DNA of 64,000 nucleotides from an uncultured Polyangiaceae bacterium (GTDB lineage: Bacteria; Myxococcota_A; Polyangia; Polyangiales; Polyangiaceae), in the NCBI GenBank assembly GCA_964454965.1, contig CAYVXY010000002.1, positions 49,426-113,425 of the forward strand, given 5' to 3'. The position numbers and the translations under genes were made by a program. Positions 3,188 through 56,020 of the stretch are shown here, in pieces. Under the pieces are notes generated by a model. The model made no database searches. It saw only the letters and a list, made by a program, of their open reading frames with translations, and was not told where the DNA came from. Within the stretch, counting starts at the first letter, position 1. Each line of letters begins with the position of its first letter.

Positions 3188-3269
3188 CGGTTGAGCCTCC
3201 AGGGCCGGGCCAGCCTAGCCAATTGGAGGCTCCGCTCGCAACTGGATTGGGTGTAAAAGACTACCGACG

Positions 3270-3968
3270 ATGCATCCCCTGATGAAGGCCTTTGTTGATG
3301 GCTCCCGCTACGGCTGGCAGCGCCGCGGCTCGATTAGTGGGTTACTGCTGGTCCTGTGGCTGCCCGTCGAGTTGGTCATCGCCAGGCTTCCGACTGAGCG
3401 CCATGCCGTTGCTCAGATGTCCCTGGAGAGTCTGGTCGAACCGCTCTGGATCGGCGCGCTCCTTCACCTCTGTCGCGCCGATCGGAGGCAGAAACCAATC
3501 GGCATGTTCTGCGCATTGCGTCGCGCCAAGCAGAGCTACGCGCGGTTGTTCGGGATCCGTACCGTGCTCGAGGTGCGGATCTTGTTCGGGCTCGTCGCTG
3601 GAATCATGCCGGGCCTTGTCATGCTTGCGAACTATGCCCTTATGGATGTGCTGGCGATTTGTGAAGATGTCGGCCCCACCCAATGTCGCACTCGCAGCGC
3701 GACCCTCGTAAGAGGACACGTTGTCGCGGTACTCGTTCTATTGGTGTTGGCCAACCTGGTGCCGCTCGGACTGGATGAACTCGTTGAAATTGCCGCGGAA
3801 TCTGCGCAGAACGGCGTGATCACGGCGCTCTTGCGCTTGGCAACGTTCGTGGTAAGCGCGTTCTTGCCGCTGACCCTGTTCGAGTTCTACCGCAGGCGCA
3901 GCGGTGCACCCCAATCGGACCTCACTCCGAGTCCAACCGGCGCGACAATGCCAGCAACAACGGCGTGA
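3270..3968 (+). CDS. Hypothetical integral membrane protein
   Basis: 232-aa ORF with several hydrophobic helices (LLLVLWLPVELVIA, ILFGLVAGIMPGLVMLANYAL, VAVLVLLVLANLVPLGL, LATFVVSAFLPLTLF). No recognisable motif. Confidence 0.55.
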   Translation: MHPLMKAFVDGSRYGWQRRGSISGLLLVLWLPVELVIARLPTERHAVAQMSLESLVEPLWIGALLHLCRADRRQKPIGMFCALRRAKQSYARLFGIRTVLEVRILFGLVAGIMPGLVMLANYALMDVLAICEDVGPTQCRTRSATLVRGHVVAVLVLLVLANLVPLGLDELVEIAAESAQNGVITALLRLATFVVSAFLPLTLFEFYRRRSGAPQSDLTPSPTGATMPATTA

Positions 3969-4019: not shown

Positions 4020-4460
4020 ATGCCATCTGAACACGAGACGTTTTGGCTAGCGAATCGCTACGCCGTCATCGGCAACGGCAAGAGCGGTCATCCATTTCCG
4101 AAACTGACCTACGGCGCACTGAAGAAGAACGGTAAGGTCGTCTTCCCGATCGATCCGAGTGCCGAGACCGTCGAGGGGGATCGGGCGTATGCGAGTCTCT
4201 CGGCGCTTGCCGAACCCATCGATGCCGTCGTTATCGAGGTGCCAAAGGCGGAGACGATGCGCTGGTGCCAGCAGGCCGTCGACCGTGGCATCAAGGACAT
4301 TTGGCTGCACGCGAACACCGACAGTCCCGAGGTCATCGCCTTCGCCAAGGAGCACGGGGTGCGACTGCGCACGGGGACCTGCGCCGTAATGTATTTGCAC
4401 CGCGGCTTTTCAGCGCACGCGGTGCATCGTGTGATCAATCGACTGCTGGGTAAGTACTAA
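4020..4460 (+). CDS. CoA-binding domain protein (YccU/YneT-like)
   Basis: 146 aa: YAVIGNGKSGHPFPKLTYGALKKNGKVVFPIDPS..ETVEGDRAYASLSAL..IDAVVIEVPKAETMRWCQQAVDRGIKDIWLH. This is the typical small Rossmann-type CoA-binding pattern. Confidence 0.8.
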   Translation: MPSEHETFWLANRYAVIGNGKSGHPFPKLTYGALKKNGKVVFPIDPSAETVEGDRAYASLSALAEPIDAVVIEVPKAETMRWCQQAVDRGIKDIWLHANTDSPEVIAFAKEHGVRLRTGTCAVMYLHRGFSAHAVHRVINRLLGKY

Positions 4461-4828
4461 CCCCAACGGCTCCCCATGGCTCGTCAGCAATGGGGCGGGT
4501 TTCGGTTCAGTCTCGCTCGATAGTCAGGCCGATTGATATGCTCTTTTGTGGTCTGTTCGGCGTGATTGTTGCGGGGTTAGTCGTCAACTTGGGCTTATGC
4601 CCGTACCTCACGCGACAGTGCGAGCAAGTTGTCGCTGCAACAAGCTATTTTGCCAGCAATGGGCCAACGTGTGGTGCGTTCAAGCGTCGTGGTCACCCCG
4701 AACTGACCCAATGGCTGGGAGTTTGCGCCGGATGCCATGACATGGCTCGGTGAACACCGATCGCGACTGGGTGCCGGTGCGGGGCACCTTGTCACGTTCG
4801 GCAAACCCAAGTAGTGAGCCGAAAGTGC

Positions 4829-5472: not shown

Positions 5473-6489
5473 ATGACCAGGCATGATATCGAGTGGCCCA
5501 GCTTCGCGGGTGTCCCTGAGGACGACGCACTGACCATCTTCACGCGGCCCGAATCGCAGGAACTGGCGCGGTGGGTATGGCAAAATGGAGAGATCCGTGA
5601 AGCGGACCAGATCCGAGTTCACTACTACTCGAATGCGCTGCACTACGGCTCGGCAGTTTTCGAGGGGATCCGGGCCTATCCTACCTCAAAGGGGACCGCT
5701 CTATTCAGACTCGACGACCACATCGATCGGTTGCTCCATTCCGCCAGCTTGTACGGCATGAAGCTGGAGCATTCTGAGGAAGAGCTCACCAGGGGCGCCA
5801 TCGAGGTTACTGAGCGCAACGGCATTGACAACGGATACCTGCGTCCGATCGCGTTTTTTGGCAATGGGCCGATTGATCTCAAGCCAAAGGTGGCCTGTCC
5901 GGTGCAGGTGCTGATCGCGATTCGAAGCCTTGGCGCGTTTCTCGGAGCAGGCGCTTTGCGCAACGGGATCCGCCTGACCATCTCGAGTTGGCGCAAATTC
6001 CACCACTCGATGATGCCCACCATGGCCAAGGCCAGTGGTCACTACGCCAACAGTGTTCTTGCAGCACATGAGGCAGTCGACCGCGGCTTCGACGATGCCA
6101 TCTTGCTCAATTCGGACGGCACCGTCGCCAGTGCCACCGGCATGAACCTGTTCTTCGTCCACGGCGGACGCTTGTTCACCAACGACGAGCAATCCTCGAT
6201 TATCCCGGGCATTACGCGCGATTCCATCCTGGTTTTGGCCCAAGACAATGACATCCCGGTAGAAGTGCGGCCATTTATCCGCGAAGAACTCCTGCGCGCC
6301 GACGAGGTGTTCTTGACAGGGACTGCCGCAGAAGTAACTCCGGTGCGCGAGCTCGAGTCAACGACGTACAGAACCGGACGCCAGACGATGGGGGCGTTCC
6401 TTCAACGCGCCTACCTGCGCGCCGTTTTGGGCCAAGACGAGAAGCATCAGGATTGGCTCACGTACGTGAAGCCGACGCACGAACGCTAG
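5473..6489 (+). CDS. ilvE: Branched-chain amino acid aminotransferase (PLP fold type IV)
   Basis: 338 aa: WQNGEIREADQIRVHYYSNALHYGSAVFEGIRAY..ALFRLDDHIDRLLHSA..GYLRPIAFFG..TMAKASGHYANSVLA..EVFLTGTAAEVTPV. Confidence 0.9.
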   Translation: MTRHDIEWPSFAGVPEDDALTIFTRPESQELARWVWQNGEIREADQIRVHYYSNALHYGSAVFEGIRAYPTSKGTALFRLDDHIDRLLHSASLYGMKLEHSEEELTRGAIEVTERNGIDNGYLRPIAFFGNGPIDLKPKVACPVQVLIAIRSLGAFLGAGALRNGIRLTISSWRKFHHSMMPTMAKASGHYANSVLAAHEAVDRGFDDAILLNSDGTVASATGMNLFFVHGGRLFTNDEQSSIIPGITRDSILVLAQDNDIPVEVRPFIREELLRADEVFLTGTAAEVTPVRELESTTYRTGRQTMGAFLQRAYLRAVLGQDEKHQDWLTYVKPTHER

Positions 6490-6492
6490 AAC

Positions 6493-9400
6493 TTACGTCC
6501 ACTCGCCCGTCCGTTGCACCAGTTCGAGCAGGGCTTCGTTCTGGATCACGGACTGCATTGCTCGCACCGTAGGTGCTGGCGGCACCGAGGGAGGCATCGA
6601 CTTGGGCGGCTCGTGCAACACGGTGTCGATGGGCCGCAGTCGTTGTGCAACAACGGAAGTGACCTGCGGGAAGGAAACCGCCAAGCCCGTGGCGAGCACG
6701 CTCGAACCAAGCGCAATCCCCCAACCAATGGGCGACAACGGCTGGCAGCCAAAGAATTGGCTCACGCCTGGTGTTTGGACGATGGCGGCCAACAGCGCCG
6801 AGGAAAGCACGCTCGTGGTGATGACGGGTCGACTGTAACCCCCCGCAGTGATCGTCTGTCCAAGTTGCGTCCCGACCAAGGCAAGCAGGCCGACCGTACT
6901 CGCCCGTTCGAAGCTGCCAAGGACACGCGCCACGGTCCAAGCCATGCCCGCGCCACTGGCTGTGATGATGGCGCGCGCTGCAATGTCACGGTTCAATGGT
7001 TTGCCGAGCGACGCATCAGGCCCCTCATTCGCGAGCTGCTCAAGCTGTTCCACCGAGGGAGGCCGCAACGCGATGGCCATGGCCGGAGCCACGTCCGTGA
7101 GCAGATTCACCAGCAGTAGCTGCCGCGGATTCAACGGTGGCCGACCATCGACCAGGCCGGCGGCCAAGGTGAAGCCGATTTCGCCCAGGTTGCCACCAAC
7201 CAGAATCGATACTGCGTCACGGACACTTGCCCACATGGCGCGGCCTTCGATAATGGCCTCGACAACCGTCTCGATCCGCTCATCCGTCAAGACGATATCC
7301 GCTGCGCTGCGGGCGGCCCCAGTGCTCGTTTCGCCAACGGCAATCCCGACGTTGGCCAAGCGGATTGCCGGAGCGTCGTTGGCGCCGTCACCGACCATTG
7401 CTACGACTCGCCCCTTGCGCTGCAGGGCGCGTACGATGCGTGCCTTCTGTGAAGGGGTGACACGCGCGAAGATCTGAACATCGTCGAGGCAACGATCGAG
7501 CTCATCGTCCGTCATGCTCAGCAGCTGGGCCCCAGACAACTGCACGCGACGGTCGACGAATCTTAGTTCATCGGCAATCGCGGCCGCCGTGCGCGGGTGG
7601 TCGCCGGTGATCATGAGCGGACGCACGCCGGTGCGGCGCAGCCGCCGCAGCGCCTTGCTCGCGGTAGGCCGAACTGGATCGCGGAACGCCACCATACCCA
7701 ACAGGGTCAACCCGGAAAGATCGCGTAGCTGTTCGGGATCTGCCGACGGGACCTGCCTATCGGCGACTCCCAGCAACCGGTAGCCGCGCCGTGCGAGTTG
7801 GTCGGTAACTTGCTCGACGTCTCGGCGCGTGACGTCGTCGAGAGCAACACGTTGTCCATCGACGACAGCTTGGGTACAAGCCGCAAGAATGACCTCGGGC
7901 GCACCCTTGACGTCAAGCCAATCCGCTCCCTCCGCGCGACCAAGGACAGCATGGTAGGCACGCCCTGGTTCGAAAGGCAGTTCCGCGCCACGTTCCCAAT
8001 GGCTGCGACCTAGCGTCAACGACACAGAAAGCGACTCCGCAGAACGCAACAAGGCAGCGTCCGTTGGGTCATCGTGCGCCATCGCGTAGCGGGCATCTGG
8101 CGCCGCGCGCAGAGCTGCCGCCACCACCAGCCGCTCCATTTCGAGCAACTCATCACGTCCGACGAAACGCCGGCCCTGAGTGACACCCACGAACTCGAGC
8201 CGCCCCTCGGTAAGAGTCCCAGTCTTATCAAGACAAAGTACATCGACACGGCCGAGTGCTTCGATCGATCGAGTACTCCGCACGAGAGCACCGCGTGCCA
8301 TCAGGCGACGTGCCGCCGCGAGTTGTGCGGCGGTGGCCAAGAGCGGAAGACCCTCGGGAACACTTGCCACCGCGAGACTCACCCCGGCTGGCACCAGATG
8401 CTCGACGCGCCGCCCGCGCAACATGCCGGCCAGAACCAGACCGACGCCAGCTCCCAGGGCCACCGGAGCCGTCAAGTTGACCAACGAACGCAGACGTTGT
8501 TCGACGCCGCTGGCATGCGGAACGCGGCGCAACGCCACCATGCCGCGCTTGGCTTCGGTTTGATCCCCAACAGCAACGACGATGCCCGTAACGCGCCCCG
8601 CGGCGATGCTCGTACCGGAATACAGCATACTGCTGCGATCGGCCGCCGAACCCTCGTAGCTCGGGTCCGAAGAGCGGACCACCGGTAGTGATTCACCGGT
8701 CAGACTCGCGGTGTCCACCTCGAGTGATTCGGCGTGCAGGATTCGGCAATCCGCGGGAACCACTTCACCACTCGACAAGACGACGATATCTCCCGTCACC
8801 AGATCGTCGACATCGACGTCGACAATGTGCCCGTCGCGGTGGACCGTAACCGTGCGTCGAGCGACTTGCGTCAAATCACGAATACGTCGCTCGGTGCGGA
8901 ACTTCTGGTAGCCGCCGAATATGGCATTGACCACGACGACGCCACCCACCATCACCGCATCACCCATCGAACCGGCCACGGCGGACAGGCCTGCGCCCAC
9001 AGCCAGCAGCGGAGCCAAGGGGTTGAACAGTTCATCCGAAACGTCTTCGACGAACTCGACGAAAGCCGGCTTGACGCTGCTCTTCACCGGCCTGCGGCGA
9101 TGCACTTCGATTTCGGCAAGCCCTACCTCGGAGGTAGAAAGTCGCCGCATGACTCCACGCGCATCGAGCGCATGCCACGGGGTGCGATCGCGGAGCGGCA
9201 CGACAGGTTGACGCGCCAAGGCTCGCGACGCACGCACGCCATTGAGCATCGAGATGAGCGTCGCCGCATTGACGACGGTAATGACACGTCGACTCGTCAG
9301 CGGTAGCAGGCCACCTGCCGAAACGAGGGCTCCCATCGTGGCAGCGGCCAACGCGATATTGACACTCTGCTTGGCGATCTGGCGCGCCACCACGGTAGCC

Positions 9401-34795: not shown

Positions 34796-36379
34796 CTAAC
34801 CTTTGGCACAGTTGGGCGCAGACGCTTCGTGAAGCTCAAAATCCGCCACTTCGCGCTTGGTTGCGCCGAAAACCACATACACATCGGACCCAATACGCGT
34901 GACGTGATCGCCGTACTTGGAAGCTGCCTTCGAATACCCGTCGCTTCGATAATCAGCGAGTAGAGCAGTCAGGAGTTCAGCGGGGTCTGCGCCGCTAACA
35001 CGACTCATGGCGGTTTCCGCGCGTGCTCTGCCGTAGATCGTCCGGCTAACACCAGGCGCATCTTCGATTCGAAGGCCAAGGACCAGATCACTTCCATCGA
35101 CTTCAAGGGATGACAAGCGCTTTCCAAGCTCCGGCTGCAGCCCCGCACGAACTGCGTTCAAGTCAGTGCGATCACGATGTGCTCGGGCAAAAATGCCAGA
35201 GAGTTCCATGAGAGCAACGGCGGTCTCGCCCTCTGCATCCTGTAGAATGGGACCCGGTTTACGACACCCGTTCAACTGGCGTCCTAGGCTTGAGGATGAA
35301 CGAGCAGCCCATTTGCCTGTCATTTTGCTCTTGAATTGTTGGGTAGTGAGTTGGTGCTTTGACGAGTCGATGCTCGTGGGTTGGATTGCCAACCACCCAT
35401 AGTCCGCTTGCGCAAGAGTGCTCTGAACCCCATTCCCATGTGCCGAACCAACCAGCATGACGGCAAGTTGCTGCGGCGCGGCTCTGGAGATTGACAGCAT
35501 GTTCAGCGTCATCACACGGCTGCGTTGGTTCGTCACTTCGAAGAATTCCAGGACTCGCTCGAAGTCGTTCTCAATCTCCGGCTCGATGTAGACTTGACGC
35601 GAGCGAGCTCGCTCACGAATTCGATGCATCTGCTCTAGGACTTGCTCGGTGGATCTGTCTAGACGTTCCGTGGTCCGCCATTCCTGAGTGACCCAAGGAT
35701 CGGCCGCCAAAATGCGTTGCCAGGTGCGATCGCGGTCACCTACTTTGGCGAGTTGTGTGGCCTCCTCCCGACTGAGCGCTGCCGCGCCGATTCGGATTAG
35801 GTACTCGGCCTCTGGGTTACCGGTAACGGTCAATTCCTTGGCGTAGAGATCGGGCTGCTCCAGGCCATGTACCGGTGTGGGGCTTAGCACTGCGACATAT
35901 TCGGCTGCACTGATTTCCCCCTGAGCCAGTAGCGCTGTGAGCGAGTCAAAGGCAAGACTCTTGTCCTTCTCGAGTTCGAACAATCGACGCACGCGCGGCG
36001 TGTTCAACTGCGTGCCAGTCGCTGCACCCTCCACGCCAACGACAATGCTGGCCTGTTGGTGCAACCGGAGCAGCATGATGGCGATTTCGATCTGGCTCAG
36101 GATTGAGGAATGATTCTCCTGAATCACGATCACGAAACCTCGGGATCCTCGTGTCGGATTTGCATTCAACGTACCAACACCGTTGGCACACCGTCGTGCG
36201 AGTTGAACCAGCTTCTCGGGGGCGCCACTCATCCCAGCACTTGATTGCGTGGCACGTGCAGGCGTCTGACGAGTGCCACCACAGCCAAGCACGAACGCAA
36301 ACAGCAGCATGGTCGTGAGCCAAGCTTGGGTCTTGAGTGCACTCCGCGCTACTAGCCTATGGGTAGATGGGTGAGACAC
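34796..36379 (-). CDS. Lipoprotein, possibly ChaN/erythromycin-esterase/TraB/Tiki-superfamily-like
   Basis: 527 aa. Lipobox LLFAFVLGCGG. The blocks are GFVIVIQENHSS..(about 30 aa)..IVVGVEGAATG and AVMLVGSAHGNG (the E.H / G..H two-block pattern). The start overlaps the upstream TIR gene by 28 nt. Confidence 0.65.
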   Translation of the reverse strand: MSHPSTHRLVARSALKTQAWLTTMLLFAFVLGCGGTRQTPARATQSSAGMSGAPEKLVQLARRCANGVGTLNANPTRGSRGFVIVIQENHSSILSQIEIAIMLLRLHQQASIVVGVEGAATGTQLNTPRVRRLFELEKDKSLAFDSLTALLAQGEISAAEYVAVLSPTPVHGLEQPDLYAKELTVTGNPEAEYLIRIGAAALSREEATQLAKVGDRDRTWQRILAADPWVTQEWRTTERLDRSTEQVLEQMHRIRERARSRQVYIEPEIENDFERVLEFFEVTNQRSRVMTLNMLSISRAAPQQLAVMLVGSAHGNGVQSTLAQADYGWLAIQPTSIDSSKHQLTTQQFKSKMTGKWAARSSSSLGRQLNGCRKPGPILQDAEGETAVALMELSGIFARAHRDRTDLNAVRAGLQPELGKRLSSLEVDGSDLVLGLRIEDAPGVSRTIYGRARAETAMSRVSGADPAELLTALLADYRSDGYSKAASKYGDHVTRIGSDVYVVFGATKREVADFELHEASAPNCAKG

Positions 36380-37059
36380 TGTTCAATTACCGTGCTAAGG
36401 GTTGAGGTTTCAACGGGCAACCAATGCAGAAGTAGCTCTCTGGCGCGGGGATCACGCGTTGCGCTGATGGCGCGCACGATGCCAAGCCGCGCCAGTTCAT
36501 CGAGCTCAGTCGTGTACACCTTTTTGACGTATGAAAATTGCTCGGCAAGCGCGACTTTGTCGGCGACATCTTCGAGGACTTGTGCAGCAACGCGGACAAC
36601 GTCGCGCTCAGGCGCGGCTTCGATCAGCCGGAGCGCACCCCAGACTTCTGCGCGCTTTCGCATCTCGCTGGCGAGGCGCATGAGGTCTTGCTGGGCGCTT
36701 GCCAGGCCATTGGAAGCTCGAACACACAAGCGGTCTGTCATGCTGGCCGGCAGCTGCACATCATCGAGTACCAATACGAAACGCGGTGCCCACCGTCGGC
36801 CGGCAATGGCCCATTCCTCTTGGCACCAAGAGGACGCAACGCTCTCTCGCGTCGCCACGAATAGGAGGCATTCGAATGCAACGTTTCGCAAGCGCGATGC
36901 CAATGCCACGCCTGGCTCAAACGGGTCGACACACAGGGTGATGTCCACAGCTGCAAATGTCGTTGTCACCAACTGACCGATGGGCATTTGACGCCAGGTG
37001 CAGTCCCCCGAGCGAGCACCTTTGACGCACTTGTGCGAAACGAAACACGTGTAGGGCAC
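36352..37059 (-). CDS. TIR-domain protein with C-terminal HEAT-like repeats
   Basis: GTG 37059 with a GAGGGA SD 7 nt upstream. The TIR-like blocks are YTCFVSH, VDPFEPG and LLFVATRESVASSWCQEEW (the S.WC..E motif). The C-terminal HEAT-like stretch includes RLGIVRAISATRDPRARELLLHWL. Confidence 0.7.
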   Translation of the reverse strand: MPYTCFVSHKCVKGARSGDCTWRQMPIGQLVTTTFAAVDITLCVDPFEPGVALASRLRNVAFECLLFVATRESVASSWCQEEWAIAGRRWAPRFVLVLDDVQLPASMTDRLCVRASNGLASAQQDLMRLASEMRKRAEVWGALRLIEAAPERDVVRVAAQVLEDVADKVALAEQFSYVKKVYTTELDELARLGIVRAISATRDPRARELLLHWLPVETSTLSTVIEQCLTHLPIG

Positions 37060-37217: not shown

Positions 37218-38756
37218 CTACTCGGGTGGACGCAATTTCGCACTGTCGCTGTAACTCACTATTCGAAGTGACGACTCACCCAAGTGCTTATGCGTAGCTC
37301 CTGTCGGATCACATCCTGCTTTGGGGTGTTCCACCAGATGGCGACGGAAGTCATCCCACAGCGCTGATAGGAATCGACTAGCCATCAAGTGCGCTCCGCG
37401 TTCGTTGAGATGGTGATCGTCAATGGCAAGACCTTTGGAACGGAACCGTCCCATTGAGTCTTGACCACCCATGGCTTGATACAGGTTGTAGAACGCGACT
37501 CCGTTCTGCAACGCGACCCTACGGAGGGACTCAACCACACGCGCGATGGCAGGATCCGAGTGGGGAGCGTCAAATTTACGCTGGATGTCTGGTGGAGCGA
37601 TCATGATCAGAGCCTGGCCAGGGTGCACCTGCCGACGCCGCGTCATGATGAGCCCCACGTCTTGGCCGTAGGTATCGCTAAAGTGAGTGTTGGCTCCGAA
37701 CCAGTAAGCGAGAAGCGCGTGGGGACGCAGTACGCCCGTTTCCCGCGCAGTCTCTGGATCTTCTTGGGTGAGCGCGCGGTAGTAAGCGCCGCCAATGCCG
37801 AAGCTATCTACGACGAAGCCTTTTGTGTTGCGTTCGAGCGCCGCTCCAAGCAGTCGAGTTGGACGGTTGGAAGTCGTGACGATTTCGAGGCGATGCGGCC
37901 CCTCGGCGAAGGAGAATTCGCGTGCCGCGACGTGGCGCTCAGCAGCATCAGTGTTCACCGGGCCAATAGGAGCGCCGTCCAGCAAGACATCGAAGGCGCC
38001 ACCGCCAGGTTGAGTCAGAAAGTAGATCGTTGCCCGATCCACAGTTGTCCCAATTGGCGACCCAGCAGGCGCGGTTGCCAAGAGAATGCGCGCGTTGGCA
38101 AGATATCCTTCGGCAGTGATCCCCGAAAGCCCGTACCGCTTATCAGGCGCTTGGGGACTGGACATGGCCCACACATGCCAGCCAAAGGCGGGCAGCTCCT
38201 GCACCACGTCGATATGCCGATACCATGGCCACGGGCGACCAACTGCGAGGAACCCATGTCCTGCGTCGCCGTAGCGCAGCTGCAGGGAGCGTCTCAGACT
38301 TGAGGTAAAGAAGTCACGCGTCAAGTTGGAGTCACCGTAGACACCGATCCGCAGCGGTTCGGGTCTACCACGACGCAGCATCCGCGCTGCCTGCTCATAG
38401 AAGTCCGCCAGCGCCGATCCGTTTTCGATCGGCGGTGCTAAAAATGTTGGTTGTGCAACAGGCTCAACTGGGAATGGCTCCAATGAAAGCGCAGGACAAT
38501 TCTCGTGGAGCTGAGGCGCCAGCGGCGCAACAGCGGGGGCACTGCCAATCGGAGTCGTGTTTGGCAGAACCGGCGTATTGGGCAAAGCCGCCGCCGTGTT
38601 TGGCGAAGGCGCCGTCTCAGTGGTAAGCGCACGGACATTCAGTGCATTGGTGTTGTGCAGAGCCACTGGAGGCGCTGCGCAGGTGGTGCCCACGGCGGCC
38701 AGCGCCACGGTCCATAGCTTTGGACCGATGGTGAACTGGGGCGACTCGAACCGCAT
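37218..38756 (-). CDS. SGNH/GDSL-family hydrolase, secreted
   Basis: ATG 38756 (the ORF extends to TTG 38786). Signal-like MRFESPQFTIGPKLWTVALAAVGTTCAAPP, then a Pro/Ala/Asn/Thr linker. Block I is RIGVYGDSNL; block V is IDDHHLNERGAHL. Confidence 0.8.
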   Translation of the reverse strand: MRFESPQFTIGPKLWTVALAAVGTTCAAPPVALHNTNALNVRALTTETAPSPNTAAALPNTPVLPNTTPIGSAPAVAPLAPQLHENCPALSLEPFPVEPVAQPTFLAPPIENGSALADFYEQAARMLRRGRPEPLRIGVYGDSNLTRDFFTSSLRRSLQLRYGDAGHGFLAVGRPWPWYRHIDVVQELPAFGWHVWAMSSPQAPDKRYGLSGITAEGYLANARILLATAPAGSPIGTTVDRATIYFLTQPGGGAFDVLLDGAPIGPVNTDAAERHVAAREFSFAEGPHRLEIVTTSNRPTRLLGAALERNTKGFVVDSFGIGGAYYRALTQEDPETARETGVLRPHALLAYWFGANTHFSDTYGQDVGLIMTRRRQVHPGQALIMIAPPDIQRKFDAPHSDPAIARVVESLRRVALQNGVAFYNLYQAMGGQDSMGRFRSKGLAIDDHHLNERGAHLMASRFLSALWDDFRRHLVEHPKAGCDPTGATHKHLGESSLRIVSYSDSAKLRPPE

Positions 38757-38784
38757 GCGGGAACTTGACACGACCCGCGCAGGC

Positions 38785-39038
38785 AAGCTTGCTCCTGACG
38801 CGGGAAGCTTGATCTCCGGGTTTGGAAGCTTTCCCCACAGCCTATTTGGGCTGGATCCGCAAATTCACCGTTTGGCCGCCGTCCAGACCATCCAGGATCC
38901 AGCAGAAAATAGGCACCGTCCCCGGGGGGAAGCTTCAGAGTTCAGAAACCAAGCTTCCAAACTCGCGAACCAAGCTTGCGGAACCGGGCGCAAGCTTCGC
39001 GACCGGTGCACCAGGCTTCAAAATCAGGCGCGAAGCTT
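38785..39038. repeat. Phased array of nine AAGCTT-centred sites (8 exact, 1 AGGCTT) with 20/21-bp spacing
   Basis: Sites start at 38785, 38805, 38826, then 38930, 38951, 38972, 38992, 39013 (AGGCTT) and 39033. Spacings are 20, 21, 104 (about 5 x 21), 21, 21, 20, 21, 20. Confidence 0.9.
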
Positions 39039-39342
39039 CAAAAACCGGATCCTTGAGATTGGGTAGTGCCATCGTGTCCATGCTCTGGCTTAGCGTGCTT
39101 AACGGAGGCGGCTTGCCATCGCGTCCATGGGACTTGTGCGGCGCGCACAGTGGGTAAGGGGCGGAAATCGTTGGTACTGGACCTGAGTCTGTTCAACGCG
39201 ATGGCCGCTCGGTAACCCATTTCGCGAAACCACGCCGCATGCGCCGACAGGCTGCTCAACTTGGTCGGCATCGACCGGGCGGTCGAGAACAAGGCTTGGC
39301 TTGGGTAAGACTCATCGACCGACACGCTCGCTCACCGGCATG

Positions 39343-39420
39343 GGGCGGAGAGAGCGCTTCCATTGGGCGGAGAGAGCGCTTCCATTGGGCGGAGAGAGCG
39401 CTTCCATTGGGCGGAGTGAG
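39343..39420. repeat. 22-bp tandem repeat, 3 perfect copies plus a degenerate partial copy
   Basis: GGGCGGAGAGAGCGCTTCCATT at 39343-39364, 39365-39386 and 39387-39408, then GGGCGGAGTGAGTGG. Confidence 0.95.
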
Positions 39421-39445
39421 TGGTTGTTGGATTTTTGGTTGGGGA

Positions 39446-39535
39446 GGCGTGGTGACAGCCCTGCGCGCTGGTGGCGGCGTGGTTACAGCTCTGCGCGCTG
39501 GTGGCGGCGTGGTTACAGCCCTGCGCGCTGGTGAC
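39446..39535. repeat. 30-bp tandem repeat, 3 near-identical copies
   Basis: GGCGTGGT(G/T)ACAGC(C/T)CTGCGCGCTGGTG(G/A)C at 39446-39475, 39476-39505 and 39506-39535. Confidence 0.95.
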
Positions 39536-39986
39536 GGAGGATGCGGCGCGGAGGAATTGGTGCGGTAAAGTCGCGGGGAGTCACGATGGACGGTCGCGGG
39601 TAGAGCGCGCGTTTCCGCGATGACCAGAACCAAATCGCCACTGGTGAGCTTGCCACTCCCAGCCTACTGAATGCATGGTCGCGCTGCCCATGAACTATTC
39701 GGCGATCCCGAAGAGTTGGCGCTGGCTCCCTCTGCCGATACGAAACAGGGTGGCGGCCGCGAATAGCTGGCGTTCGCAACGGACAACCTTGCGCCGCGGT
39801 GTTGCAAGCGCCCATCGAAGCGTCGCAAGGCACGTGGACCGCAATGGGGAGCCATTGGCACGGGTTCCAAGCTGGCCGAACGACGCCTGCCAGCCTAACC
39901 GGGTGCCTGCTTCCCAAGGATTACGGCGGGACCTGTGCAATGCGACCGCGCGTCGTTCGTCACCAGCCGTGGTAGACTCGACGTTC

Positions 39987-40886
39987 ATGTCGACCGAGTA
40001 CGCAATCGAGACCTCCAAACCGTCGTTGTCACAATGCGAGTGCTGTGGCGGTCTCACCACTCGACTTACTCGGTTTGTGTACCGCGGGGGCGACGCATTC
40101 GCTGTCTACTACGCAATCTACTCGAACAGCCACCGCGAAAATGAAGTTGACATGTTAGTTTCGCTCGGCGAATGGGGCGAAGGTAGTGACCCGTCGCAAC
40201 GTGCCGCCTTCTATTGCCGAGTCCGCCCAAGCGAAAACTCCTACGACGTCAAGCTTGTCGACGCGGCGGAGTCACCTTGGAGCACAGTTGCTATCATGGG
40301 CCAAGAGCTTTCGCGCGCGGAAGCCCTCAGTCATCCGTGGAAGCAGACGGCGTTCGAAATACTCGACGAAGCGTTTCTACGTGACTGCTCCCTCCGCGGC
40401 TTCCTTCATCGCGTGGCGTGCGGAGATCCCGCTGTTCCACTGGAGCATAGCTTTGGCATGCCGGATGACGTCTTCGCCCTTGGTGACGAACGAAGTGAAC
40501 GGGCTGAGGTGCGTCGCAACTTCGCTTCACTCGATGGAAAGCGGTTCTTCGTTCGCTGTTTGCTACCCGTCCCCGTGGAAGATTATGGGACTTGGTCCAT
40601 TGGACTCTGGGTCGAGGTTTCGAAGGACAACTATGACCGAGTCTGGAGCGCCTGGGACACGCCAGAAGACTGGGTGCGCCTCCAATTTTCTGGATCCGTC
40701 GCTAACGATGGGGCGGAACTTGGCCTTCCCATCATATCTGGAACTACCGTACACGTGCACGCGCCAGACCCGAGCACGCCACTACATGTCGAGTCAGTGT
40801 CGAGCAGCGAACTGAGCACGTTTCTCTCCAAGACGTGGACCAAGGCGTCTTTCGAGAGTTACGCAGTCATTCGTGGTTTCTTGTGA
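39987..40886 (+). CDS. Hypothetical protein with a DUF2199-like C-terminal half
   Basis: ATG 39987 (MSTEYAIETSKPSLSQCECCGG...). The C-terminal half has DGKRFFVRCLLPVPVEDYGTWSIGLWVEVSKDNYDRVWSAWD...LQFSGSVAND, which resembles the DUF2199 pattern as I remember it. The upstream part of ORF 39675-40886 is probably not coding. Confidence 0.6.
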   Translation: MSTEYAIETSKPSLSQCECCGGLTTRLTRFVYRGGDAFAVYYAIYSNSHRENEVDMLVSLGEWGEGSDPSQRAAFYCRVRPSENSYDVKLVDAAESPWSTVAIMGQELSRAEALSHPWKQTAFEILDEAFLRDCSLRGFLHRVACGDPAVPLEHSFGMPDDVFALGDERSERAEVRRNFASLDGKRFFVRCLLPVPVEDYGTWSIGLWVEVSKDNYDRVWSAWDTPEDWVRLQFSGSVANDGAELGLPIISGTTVHVHAPDPSTPLHVESVSSSELSTFLSKTWTKASFESYAVIRGFL

Positions 40887-52998: not shown

Positions 52999-54246
52999 CT
53001 ACAACTTGGACTGGACGACGAACTGGGAGATGGGGATCTTGAGCTCTACTACCCCTTCAGCCACCAAGCGGGCCATCTGGTAGGCGCCTTCCGTCGAGAA
53101 GTGCAGCGGATCGGTCCCGTTCAATATGATGGTCGACATGACGGCGGCGTCGCCGATGCTTGTGTAGTAGGCAAGGCCCTTGCTTTGCACATCGATGAGC
53201 AGGGTGTTAGTTTCCGCGGCAACGGCCTTGATGGCATCGCAGTATGCAGCAAAACCGTTCTGGAAGACACCGTTGACGTATTGATGGCGCGGCGTCGGCG
53301 TGAGCAAAACTGGTATGGCGTTCTTGCTGCGCGCGCCGTCAATGTACTGCTTCAAGTAGGTTCTGAATGTGGTGGCAGGGTCAGTGGCCCGACCCTCACC
53401 GGCCACGGCTCGGTCGTTGATGCCCCATTGGGCAAACAGGTAATCGCCGGGCTTTATCACCGCCAAGATCTCATCCAACCGTCCTTCAGTAATGAATGAC
53501 AGGGAGCTTCTGCCGCCCATGGCCTTGTTCACGATGAGCACGTCACTGGTGCTGGTAAAGAATTCTTGAAACCGCTGCCCCCACCCCTGCTGAGGAGCTT
53601 GGCTAGCGGCATAGGTTTGGCAGGTCGAGTCTCCCGCCAAATACACCTTGGGCGTGCCCGTCGCTATGGGGTACGTGCTGGCGCCCGCAGCGCCGCCGGC
53701 AGCCTTGCCACCCGTTGCGACCGTGCCACCTGCTTGTGTGCCGCCGGCAGCTTTGCCGCCTGATGCGACGGTACCGCCCGATTGCGTGCCGCCAACCGCT
53801 TTGCCACCCGTTGCGACGGTACCGCCCGATTGCGTGCCGCCAACCGCTTTGCCACCCGTTGCGACGGTACCGCCCGATTGCGTGCCGCCAACCGCTTTGC
53901 CGCCCGTTGCGACGGTACCTCCTGTAGCGATTGATCCGCCCGACGCTGCAGTGGCGCCTCCCTCGGATCCCCCACCATTGCCGACCGTACCACTGCTGCT
54001 TGACGATGAGCCAGCGGCAGACAGACTTCCACCGGTGTATAGGCCACTGTTCGATGCTCCACCCGTGACTGGCGAATGGCCACCGACTCCGATCATGCTA
54101 CCGCTGTCGGTAGGACTCGTTCCACCCGAGGCTCCGCCATTGGCGGTCTGAAGTGCCTCATTGCCGGCGCCACTGCAAGCAGTGCCGCCAAGCAGACTAG
54201 CGGTGAGTAGAGCTAGAACAGAAATCCTTCGCTTTGCCGATTTCAT
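52999..54246 (-). CDS. SGNH-hydrolase lipoprotein (rhamnogalacturonan-acetylesterase-like) with a tandem-repeat linker
   Basis: ATG 54246: MKSAKRRISVLALLTASLLGGTACSG. Repeats GGTQSGGTVATGGKAV follow. SGNH blocks: VYLAGDSTCQTY, NKAMGGRSS, FAQWGINDR, DPLHFSTEGA. Confidence 0.85.
   Translation of the reverse strand: MKSAKRRISVLALLTASLLGGTACSGAGNEALQTANGGASGGTSPTDSGSMIGVGGHSPVTGGASNSGLYTGGSLSAAGSSSSSSGTVGNGGGSEGGATAASGGSIATGGTVATGGKAVGGTQSGGTVATGGKAVGGTQSGGTVATGGKAVGGTQSGGTVASGGKAAGGTQAGGTVATGGKAAGGAAGASTYPIATGTPKVYLAGDSTCQTYAASQAPQQGWGQRFQEFFTSTSDVLIVNKAMGGRSSLSFITEGRLDEILAVIKPGDYLFAQWGINDRAVAGEGRATDPATTFRTYLKQYIDGARSKNAIPVLLTPTPRHQYVNGVFQNGFAAYCDAIKAVAAETNTLLIDVQSKGLAYYTSIGDAAVMSTIILNGTDPLHFSTEGAYQMARLVAEGVVELKIPISQFVVQSKL
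53674..53930. repeat. 48-bp in-frame tandem repeat (about 5 copies) inside CDS 52999-54246
   Basis: GGTACCGCCCGATTGCGTGCCGCCAACCGCTTTGCCACCCGTTGCGAC is identical at 53770-53817 and 53818-53865. There is one mismatch at 53866-53913. Two diverged copies lie upstream (53674-53769). Confidence 0.9.
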
Positions 54247-54737
54247 TTTTGGTCCCTCGCGAGCACGAGATCCACACGAGTCCGGGTGAACTGACCCGTC
54301 AGACTCAGCTGCCGGTCGTGATAACAAGATTGTCTGATGAGCAATCGCGATCCGCCAGAGCACGCACACTCATGATTCAATTTGCCATAGCTAGATAGCG
54401 GACTTCAGTTCTACTCGCGCAGTCAATGCATAGTAGTCTCTCGCGACCACAATCAGTCAGCGATGCGTGTGGATTTTTCCTTCAGCGGAGTCTGCCACCG
54501 GGCCGCTACGTCACGCAGGGGGTCCAGGGCCGGCCCCGGTCCATCTTCTTGGGCTCTCCGGGCGCAATCGCCGCTCCTGTCGCGGCCCCCGTGGCCAAGA
54601 CGCGGGTAATTTCCCGGAAAAGGCAAAGACGGAGGGGTGACCTTGCGGTCCTGTCGCGTGGAAGTCTGCTTTCGTCGGCTCAATGGGACCGAGTCTCGCT
54701 ACTGGTTGGAACGGGCGTCTGCTTATGCAAGCCTTTC

Positions 54738-55464
54738 CTAGTCCAAGCTTTTCCTGGTCCAAGCGCCTTCGTCGACCGAGAGCTTGCCGATGCGTCGCCG
54801 ATAGCCCAAAGCCAATAGCCAGGTCCGTGCCGCCGCAACCGGCGGCGGCACGCTCGGCGGCAATAGCGTCTCGACGAAGCCGTCGAACCAGGCGGCAGAA
54901 CTGCAGGGATCGATGCACCCAAGGGGATAGCGCTCGCCCCCATTGGTGGCGCCAATTGCCCAATACATAGACAAGCACCGCGCGGACCTCGCGCGGTGTG
55001 CGCAGGATGCGTTCGTGATACCTATCCGCCCAAACCGCCCCGCGAAGAGCGTGCACGCGATTGAACCCGCGCGCCATTCGAATCACGAGGCCGCGCAGAC
55101 CACGCGAAAGGGACACCTGGTCGTTTGCTTCGCAGATGAGATGCACGTGGTTGCTTTGGATACTGTAGTGCACGATTCTGCAGCCAAATCGATCGCGGGC
55201 AGCCGCGATAGCGGCGACGAAGACGCGCCGTGACTCAGGGAGTCGCAAGGAGGGTAGGCCCGCTCTGACGCGCAACGTCACATGGACAGGAAATACTGCG
55301 GCAAGCACGGGACGCTTGCGATGCGGAATTCCTGAACGCCCGCTTCGCGGACGCCCCGAACCTGGACGATACCCACCACGACCTCGACAAGGGAGGGCTA
55401 GTTGGAAGTACCTGGCGGTCGCTTGGCTCGACCGCGACCGCCGCTGATTCAATAACTTCGCCAT
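54738..55464 (-). pseudogene. IS200/IS605-family-like HUH/Y1 transposase (REP-associated tyrosine transposase-like), apparently frameshifted
   Basis: Frame A (ATG 55464): VHVTLRV..IVHYSIQSNHVHLICEA (HUH)..WADRYHERIL (Tyr)..VYVLGNWRHQWG. The sensible continuation (ERYPLGCIDPCSSAAWFDGF...ARTWLLALGYRRRIGKLSVDE) is in another frame (ORF 54738-54974). The switch is at the C5/G5 run 54937-54941. Confidence 0.75.
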
Positions 55465-55512
55465 AGACGAGGGCCTGAACTCATTGTGCGAGCTGTAAGG
55501 CGAAGGATTATT

Positions 55513-55538
55513 GCGTGAAATCGCGCCCGATTTCACGC
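55513..55538. repeat. Perfect 11-bp inverted repeat (hairpin, 4-nt loop) just upstream of the transposase gene
   Basis: GCGTGAAATCG-cgcc-CGATTTCACGC. It lies 49-75 nt upstream of ATG 55464 on the minus strand. Confidence 0.9.
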
Positions 55539-55859
55539 CACTGATTACCGCCTTAATCTGTCACAACACCAGCTCCACACCAGTTCAAACTGCATGAAAA
55601 CGCCTCGCGTATCAGCGCGAATACGGGCATGACACCGCCGCTGAATTGACACCACGTGCAGCAAGTGTGCGTCACTCGGCAATGGCTCGTGACGACACAA
55701 GTGCACAAGTACATGGCGAACGCACCTGCGCTGGCCGTCAACAGCGGTCTTTGGGACTAAGCACTGGTAGTGCCTCGGCTCGCATTGCGCTCGCCACGCA
55801 CGACACCAATTGCTCGCTTCGTCCGAAGGCGCGCCAGGGCTACAACGACGCGCACACAT

Positions 55860-56020
55860 GGTTTCACGCCCACAGGTTCTCGCGCAGAACCTGCCCGTCT
55901 GGACGATGGCGGCCCATGCTTGGATTCACGCCCGCAGGTGCTCGCGCAGAACCCGCCCGTCAGGACGACGGCGACCTATGTTCGGGTTTGCCCCCGCAAG
56001 TGCACATCGTGGGTGGGTCA
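55860..56020. repeat. 62-bp tandem repeat, about 2.6 copies (about 84% identity between the two full copies)
   Basis: Copy A is 55860-55921, copy B is 55922-55983, and a partial copy C starts at 55984. Copy A contains the palindrome AGGTTCT-cgcgc-AGAACCT (55874-55892). Copies start GG(T/A)TTCACGCC. Confidence 0.85.

Follow-up and report, generated by a model that had tools for sequence, protein, structure and literature searches.

Helically phased AAGCTT palindromes at the start of a hydrolase gene of an uncultured Polyangiaceae bacterium: a putative protein-binding array that recurs in Polyangia

The DNA analysed here (64,000 nucleotides of contig CAYVXY010000002.1 from the genome assembly GCA_964454965.1 of an uncultured Polyangiaceae bacterium; referred to as the window) carries, at positions 38785 to 39038, nine AAGCTT-type palindromes which follow each other at a distance of two helical turns and form two opposed blocks at the 5' end of a gene for a secreted SGNH/GDSL hydrolase. 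We give about an even chance to the reading that this is a cis-acting DNA array of putative binding sites for a dimeric protein, which would probably control the hydrolase gene. Judging from comparison with other genomes, the array belongs to a recurrent class in Polyangia with an AAGCTT core and a period of 20.5–21 bp, which is usually located just past the stop codon of a gene designated X. Phased arrays of palindromic binding sites are a known kind of element; the AAGCTT family itself is, to our knowledge, apparently undescribed, and literature searching on such arrays returned only primer sequences or irrelevant papers. The parts of the element are as follows.

37218–38786, minus strand: SGNH/GDSL hydrolase gene (match to Pfam Lipase_GDSL_2, below the family cut-off)
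38785–38831: left array, three AAGCTT (38785, 38805, 38826), inverted with respect to the right array (read from the sequence)
38792–38796, minus strand: Shine-Dalgarno sequence AGGAG, 5 nt before the TTG start codon, between sites 1 and 2 (read from the minus strand)
38832–38929: core of 98 bp without hexamers; hexamer-to-hexamer gap of 104 bp = 5 × 20.8
38841–38858 and 38895–38913: core dyad CCTATTTGGGCTGGATCC / GGATCCAGCAGAAAATAGG (inverted-repeat search)
38930–39038: right array, six sites (38930, 38951, 38972, 38992, 39013 = AGGCTT, 39033; read from the sequence)
39033–39049: outer right arm AAGCTTCAAAAACCGGA, 88% complementary to 38815–38831, the right edge of the dyad-symmetric element

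The eight exact AAGCTT hexamers and the single AGGCTT variant lie where an earlier reading of the letters without database searches (the sequence-only reading) had placed them, spaced by 20 and 21 bp on the left, 104 bp across the core and 21, 21, 20, 21 and 20 bp on the right. The whole window contains 24 copies (12.5 ± 3.9 in dinucleotide shuffles), 16 of which are distributed over the other 63.7 kb. At this background rate 0.064 copies are expected in 254 bp (Poisson P for at least eight about 7e-15). Eight copies within any 260-bp segment of the 64 kb were reached by AAGCTT and by no other hexamer, and no second chain of at least three AAGCTT-like sites (one mismatch allowed) with a spacing of 19–22 bp was found elsewhere in the window. 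The enrichment and the phasing of the array are far beyond chance. The DNA had been described as GC-rich, which has to be corrected: with 59.9% GC the window is only moderately so. The organism is Myxococcota-like, in line with the sequence-only reading.

All nine sites are located within ±24 degrees of one face of the helix (10.35 bp per turn; R = 0.97), in agreement with the earlier proposal. The left trio and the right six have opposite orientations: the arms TCCGGGTTTGGAAGCTT and AAGCTTCAAAAACCGGA are 88% complementary, and longer inverted arms of 47 nt are 74% complementary. Extended 8-bp palindromes are present, as previously noticed, at sites 1 and 6 (CAAGCTTG) and at sites 4 and 9 (GAAGCTTC). 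The right-array sites are mostly followed by C and an A-rich run. Pairwise identity between the units of the array is 0.96 in the hexamer columns versus 0.34 in the other columns, and the conserved part of each 20.7-bp unit amounts to 6–8 bp, with spacers of 14–15 bp.

A comparison with a close relative shows that the hexamers are selectively retained. The relative is represented by a 1,988-bp Logan contig (L001), which encodes a hydrolase homologue (P0001) with 90% protein identity and has kept the array. Its 309 bp upstream of the gene, together with the first coding bases, align to 38676–39095 of the window with zero indels, so the spacing of the sites has been kept. Only 1 of 54 hexamer positions is changed, in contrast to 24 of 102 positions of the array spacers (Fisher p = 1.7e-4); the core is changed at 12 of 98 positions. 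Sites 1 and 3 of the left block are intact in L001 and site 2 reads GAGCTT, whereas all 36 hexamer positions of the right array are identical, the AGGCTT variant included. In the most diverged stretch (38936–38985), 18 of 44 spacer positions are changed and both embedded hexamers are untouched. The prefix ACC, which had been regarded as shared by the right-hand units, does occur at sites 5, 6 and 8, though without conservation in L001. The substitutions are clustered in blocks of 3–5 nt directly 5' of sites 5 and 6 (38946–38950, AAACC in the window and TCGTG in L001; 38968–38970, AAC and CGG, respectively), with the hexamers and the C/A-rich 3' flank unchanged. Scans of metagenome contigs with the hydrolase protein or with a 32-nt conserved segment of the array found no further close relatives, which leaves L001 as the only one.

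The hydrolase gene was previously assumed to start with the ATG at 38756. Gene calls place its start at a TTG codon (38784–38786) which overlaps site 1: both P0274 from the source genome (522 aa, on a 522,818-bp NCBI contig) and P0001 begin with MPARVV at the TTG equivalent to 38786. An exact database look-up of the hydrolase with the ATG start gave no match because the databases use the TTG start. The minus strand reads AGGAG-caagc-TTG, and sites 2 and 3 follow within the next 45 bp upstream. The left trio, which had been placed over the promoter, in fact spans the start codon, the ribosome-binding site and 45 bp upstream. As in tandem operators, the sites thus overlap the initiation region of a gene, with site 1 on the TTG and the Shine-Dalgarno sequence between sites 1 and 2.

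To look for similar arrays, the pattern AAGCTT-N14-15-AAGCTT-N14-15-AAGCTT was scanned in one genome per species, which yielded at least 119 loci; classes of arrays with other cores would have gone unseen since the pattern contained AAGCTT. The hits in low-GC genomes are arrays with a strict 21-bp period, presumably coding heptads. A separate set in high-GC genomes has mixed 20/21-bp spacing and far more than three sites, and most of these arrays contain stops in all six frames. The following were used for comparison.

L105, Acidobacteriota: 22 AAGCTT sites, 4086–4646
L043, Holophagales (Acidobacteriota): 20 sites, 3219–3689
L025, Thermoanaerobaculia metagenome-assembled genome (MAG): 19 sites, 5769–6154
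L040, the same Thermoanaerobaculia MAG as L025: 13 sites, 519–929
L056, Acidobacteriota: 18 sites, 7393–7871
L087, Acidobacteriota: 12 sites, 5691–6162
L094, Acidobacteriota: 12 sites, 2201–2561
L044, high-GC genome: 10 sites
L029, Deltaproteobacteria MAG: array
L093, Polyangiaceae MAG with a GC content of 0.59, like that of the window: array
L117, chromosome of Sorangium sp. So ce1335 (NZ_CP150363.1): array at about 10,433,440–10,433,680

In ten of eleven further non-coding arrays, the hexamer columns show a pairwise identity of 0.83–1.0 and the other columns 0.34–0.64; the exception (L029) is a recent, almost perfect tandem whose columns do not differ from each other. The degenerate units deviate mostly by one mismatch (GAGCTT, AAGCTC, AAGGTT, AGGCTT). 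Flanking preferences vary from array to array, and hence AAGCTT and the period are the features in common. Of seven elements for which the helical repeat was fitted, six gave a best value of 10.30–10.40 bp per turn. The arrays from Acidobacteriota have variable spacers, show higher-order block duplication and often begin 0–70 bp past a stop codon; the two arrays of the Thermoanaerobaculia MAG share unit types. The neighbours of 23 arrays, compared by all-against-all BLASTP and by a Pfam search of the 10 nearest genes, have no gene in common; they included an FkbM methyltransferase, PilZ, a BlaI-type repressor, RecT and DUF1203.

Within Polyangia the picture is more uniform. The arrays L093 and L117 are abutted by the 3' end of a homologous gene, X. 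Its product is all-helical and about 250 aa long, and more than 220 homologues were found in Polyangiaceae, Minicystis, Byssovorax, Sorangium and Labilithrix. An array follows the X stop codon in seven of the eight Polyangia loci checked, one of which, the Labilithrix locus L252, has only a weak version (GAGCTTCCGAC ... GTCGGAAGC); an X paralogue of Sorangium (L251) has no array. X is encoded at the following coordinates.

L093: 3005–3766, minus strand
L244: 4001–4774
L246: 4001–4849
L248: 4001–4753
L250: 4001–4729
L117: about 1029–1400

The full build is found at six X loci (L093, its paralogue L244/245 in the same MAG, L246/247, L248/249, L250 and L117). It begins 8–110 bp past the X stop codon and consists of a proximal block AAGCTTCCCGG, a core and a distal block CCGGGAAGCTT; the blocks are inverted and the phase is kept. 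The gaps between the inner hexamers are 125, 125, 125, 149, 146 and 126 bp in L093, L244, L246, L248, L250 and L117, respectively, i.e. 6–7 × about 20.9 bp. In the very GC-rich loci, the hexamer drifts (AAGGTT, AGCCTT, GACCTT), with the flank TTCCCGG and the phase retained. Degenerate hexamers that are still in phase occur in the cores of L093, L244 and L246; as these suggest, the bipartite appearance may have arisen from a continuous array with relaxed central units. The cores of the window, L093 and L117 share no similarity above shuffles; in a MAFFT alignment of cores only the paralogues L093 and L244 align, which belong to a segmental duplication that includes gene X.

The array of the window fits this Polyangia group with its 3 + 6 sites and its gap of 5 × 20.8 bp. 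Of its sites, only the two innermost (AAGCTTTCCCC ... GGGGGGAAGCTT) conform to the extended X-type motif AAGCTTCCCGG, which points coreward on both sides; the outer ones are directed outwards. A profile hidden Markov model built from 120 X homologues found nothing in the 64-kb window (best E = 1.4), and the array is thus an orphan copy. The sequence-only reading had named a dispersed satellite without positional conservation as an outcome contrary to its proposal: similar arrays are indeed dispersed elsewhere, but one subclass keeps its position behind gene X across Polyangia. In addition, X stands beside a candidate defence pair in L246 (2001–3802; PADLOC HEC-01A, E = 1.6e-129, and HEC-01B, E = 1.9e-69) and beside an AAA-ATPase/methyltransferase fusion and an IS21-type transposase in L248; X may reside in variable islands. 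The core of L117 contains a perfect 16-bp palindrome, AATTTCCCGGGAAATT (about 1596–1611), the centre of which matches the core of the Noc-binding site of Firmicutes; probably it represents either coincidence or a site for a second protein.

The dyad symmetry of the hexamer, the conserved phase with variable spacers, the one-faced geometry and the lack of a coding or RNA signal (see below) are best explained by cooperative binding of a dimeric protein, and the earlier suggestion of a cooperative operator for such a protein is plausible, with the left trio over the initiation region. Each of the nine dyad-symmetric (G)AAGCTT(C) sites, one per two helical turns, would be bound by a dimer of a sequence-specific protein; binding would be cooperative, with all dimers on one face of the helix, and the opposed blocks of three and six sites might be bridged across the 98-bp core. 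Since the left block extends from the start codon over the ribosome-binding site and 45 bp upstream, occupancy would most likely repress or gate the hydrolase gene by occluding its initiation region. The closest counterparts in this respect are operators of the DeoR/GlpR and ArgR types, which likewise consist of palindromes about 20–21 bp apart from centre to centre over promoter or initiation regions. These are bound by oligomeric repressors on one face, have 2–5 sites with about 18–20 conserved bp and belong to known regulons with an identified repressor. In contrast to them, up to 9 sites (22 in Acidobacteriota) sharing only a hexamer are present here, and no regulator gene was found adjacent to the array.

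Several observations weigh against such an operator of the hydrolase gene. A scan of the core for a sigma-70-type promoter consensus was negative, and manual inspection revealed no sigma-54 or extracytoplasmic function (ECF)-type promoter there. Hydrolase orthologues with 40–46% identity have no AAGCTT upstream; the Polyangiaceae contigs concerned (L002, L122 and L123) contain no AAGCTT at all in these loci, and the array thus appears not to be an ancient feature of the hydrolase gene. No DNA-binding gene was consistently found beside the arrays among the neighbours of the 23 examined. Convergent genes flank some of the related arrays (L117, L043), which means that control of a promoter or gene is not a general role or not the only one. 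X itself has no recognisable DNA-binding domain or fold relative: no match was obtained in Pfam (with a single sequence and with 49 members), NCBIfam, PADLOC, PHROGs or a PDB sequence search, nor by Foldseek with a confident AlphaFold model (predicted local distance difference test, pLDDT, 88.5). The footprinting rests on one close relative, and 6–8 conserved bp per 20.7-bp unit are short for a classical operator.

A broader interpretation is offered here tentatively, as a possibility well short of probable: two-turn AAGCTT arrays may be a new class of cis-elements of Polyangia, and possibly of Acidobacteriota, with a dedicated reader protein which would control neighbouring genes or local chromosome structure. 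The reader would assemble a one-faced nucleoprotein filament or loop. A candidate for it is the all-helical X family, which adjoins most Polyangia copies; a protein sensitive to HindIII-type adenine methylation of the palindrome is an alternative candidate. Short palindromes arrayed in helical phase are usually the sign of a cooperative nucleoprotein machine, for example an origin, a centromere, a repressosome or a packaging site. The array described here shows direct comparative evidence of selection on hexamer and phase and recurs across Polyangia, a class with large and poorly understood regulatory genomes. A probe of about 260 bp, together with the candidate partner X, offers a way to find, in myxobacteria, a new DNA-binding protein or principle of regulation. 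Should the array be only a constrained minisatellite, it is still a warning that tandem repeats in such genomes can mimic operators.

Other explanations differ in the level at which the array would act or in its origin. That the open reading frame (ORF) 38557–39066 on the plus strand or another frame encodes a repeat protein has a practically negligible probability. This frame is indeed free of stops over the array in the window as well as in L001, but the alternation of 20 and 21 bp shifts the hexamer between reading frames, the changes against L001 are mostly non-synonymous with many radical replacements (e.g. EFRNQASKLANQACGTG vs KVSREASKTARQALVTG), the ORF is antisense to the N-terminus of the hydrolase and has no Pfam match, and most related arrays carry stops in all six frames. 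The array is non-coding, and the earlier view of a DNA-level signal rather than a protein agrees with both the frame-shifting spacing and the non-synonymous divergence of the open frame. An element acting in RNA, for which the array would be part of the hydrolase mRNA as its 5' leader or lie in the 3' untranslated region of X, is rather unlikely. It might take the form of a long imperfect hairpin of both inverted blocks or of AAGCUU motifs which bind or titrate an RNA-binding protein. The location of the left trio in or beside the translation initiation region and the start of related arrays 0–70 bp behind stop codons would suit it, and either strand folds more stably than shuffled sequences (z = -4.1 and -3.7); z-values of about -4 follow from the inverted palindromic blocks, with the left trio pairing with sites 4–7. 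However, the differences between the window and L001 show no compensatory pattern (18 changes in the right arm and 4 in the left), and site- or spacer-centred complementarity does not exceed within-array controls in 12 arrays; in the window array the flank complementarity is 1.0–1.2 of 6, under these controls. Rfam gave no match at the gathering score in the whole window, nor even at E <= 1 in 38600–40000, and no tRNAs were found. Moreover, the strict 20/21-bp spacing with its best fit at 10.35 bp is a property of the DNA helix and not a requirement of RNA. Replication iterons or a partition centromere left by an integrated plasmid or prophage, and likewise a phage pac site, were considered as well and are very improbable. 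The two-turn period is typical of plasmid iterons, and two blocks around a core recall parC of plasmid R1 and pac of phage P1 as known from the literature. The neighbourhood, by contrast, is ordinary chromosome with housekeeping and signalling genes. In a Pfam scan of the larger ORFs from about 18 kb to the left to about 20 kb to the right of the array (several of them without any family), supplemented by an NCBIfam run on seven nearby ORFs, we found NorB, sigma-70-family factors, a FecR-like anti-sigma factor, histidine kinases, an amidase, an aldo-keto reductase, methyltransferases, a TIR-like protein and DUF2199, and no Rep, ParA, ParB, ParM, terminase or integrase. Nor does an AT-rich segment suitable for unwinding exist (GC at least 0.57 across 38.5–39.7 kb), and no DnaA box lies near the array; the nearest 9-mer resembling one is at a distance of over 6 kb, and such 9-mers are as frequent as expected by chance. 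A blastn search with the array gave no match in 72,556 plasmids and 50,697 phages, and the triple-site hits in viral contigs are almost all low-GC, strict-21 and presumably coding repeats. Iterons are therefore disfavoured, with direct repeats at a period close to the approximately 22 bp of iterons (20/21 bp) but only 6–8 bp conserved per unit, no rep gene detected, no AT-rich element and no nearby DnaA box; a partition centromere is disfavoured as well, since neither a ParA/ParM-type NTPase nor a gene for a centromere-binding protein was detected among the scanned ORFs and no plasmid matches. Neither the iteron nor the centromere proposed in the sequence-only reading is thus upheld. The iterons of R6K, RK2 and pPS10, which have units of 17–22 conserved bp bound by a dedicated protein and adjoin a rep gene, an AT-rich region and DnaA boxes, resemble the window array in their direct repeats at two-turn spacing and differ from it in all of this context. 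In R1 parC, ten iterons with an 11-bp period (one turn) lie directly upstream of parMR and are bound by ParR cooperatively on one face; there too, two blocks of phased repeats flank a core and the region doubles as a gene-control region, whereas the window array has a period of 20.7 bp, 6–8 conserved bp, a chromosomal location and no par genes detected. P1 pac, which is located inside the phage terminase gene and is Dam-regulated, has 4 + 3 TGATCA/G hexamers around the cleavage region, and it is similar in its two clusters of a methylatable palindromic hexamer around a core of about 100 bp. Its period is different, and no phage genes or viral matches accompany the window array. A CRISPR array, which would have repeats of at least 23 nt and unique spacers, does not fit either, with a conserved unit of 6–8 bp, spacers of 14–15 bp and no cas families among the ORFs of the window scanned.

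Two further explanations concern the origin of the array. We assign a small probability to a decaying minisatellite, i.e. a functionless old tandem of 20–21 bp in which chance, gene conversion or ascertainment would account for the surviving hexamers. The genome is rich in short tandem repeats of 16–62 bp, including 22-nt and 30-nt arrays 300–500 bp from the AAGCTT array; related arrays expand via block duplication (L025, L029, L040, L105); a continuous ancestral array would account for the in-phase degenerate hexamers in the cores of L093, L244 and L246 and for gaps that all measure a whole number of periods of about 20.8 bp; and the search, which required AAGCTT, was blind to arrays with other cores. 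Neutral decay should, however, hit all positions of a unit equally, in conflict with the contrast between hexamer columns (0.96) and the rest (0.34) and with the sparing of the hexamers between species; the differential conservation of the hexamer extends across phyla. Furthermore, the phase is unbroken by indels in the array, in L001 and across the core in seven elements at seven loci. A miniature mobile element similar to REPINs, the inverted blocks of which would bind a transposase or recombinase and which would have inserted upstream of the hydrolase gene, appears improbable. It would agree with the inverted doublet around a short core, the absence of the array upstream of the deeper hydrolase orthologues, the occupation of unrelated loci, the two copies per MAG (L093/L244, and L025/L040 with common unit types) and the presence of a RAYT-like transposase gene 15.5 kb away.

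54511–55536, minus strand: RAYT-like Y1 (IS200-type) transposase gene (Pfam Y1_Tnp above the cut-off; NCBIfam REP_Tyr_transpos below it)

Repetitive extragenic palindromic sequences (REP) and their BIME and REPIN forms are indeed, like the AAGCTT arrays, dispersed outside genes as inverted doublets, frequently right behind stop codons, and REP and REPIN sequences go with RAYT transposases. In contrast, REPs are hairpins of 20–35 nt in many near-identical copies, whereas the AAGCTT units form no hairpins (flank complementarity below controls), have only the hexamer in common and make up one array in 64 kb. No terminal inverted repeats or target duplications were recognised. The repeats by the RAYT-like gene, a 62-nt tandem duplication with the palindrome GGTTCTCGCGCAGAACC about 300 bp upstream of it (55850–55973; no other copy of the palindrome in the window), are unrelated to AAGCTT. 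The copies L093 and L244 are explained by the segmental duplication, and the position behind X is held across families, which argues for vertical descent.

Some other repeats and genes of the window may be mentioned. The 22-nt and 30-nt repeats are located in the same gene-free region of about 1.2 kb as the array: 3.7 copies of a 22-nt unit (CATTGGGCGGAGAGAGCGCTTC) at 39339–39420 and 3.1 copies of a 30-nt unit at 39446–39537. The 22-nt unit contains GCTTCCATTGGGCG, which is loosely similar to the L093 unit AAGCTTCCCAGATGGGCG, and the 30-nt unit contains GCTGGTGG, identical to the E. coli Chi octamer. A weak match to a TIR-domain protein was found just downstream of the hydrolase gene (36352–37059, minus strand). 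A second GDSL-lipase gene (52999–54369) has an internal tandem repeat of 4.5 copies of a 48-nt unit at 53705–53919.

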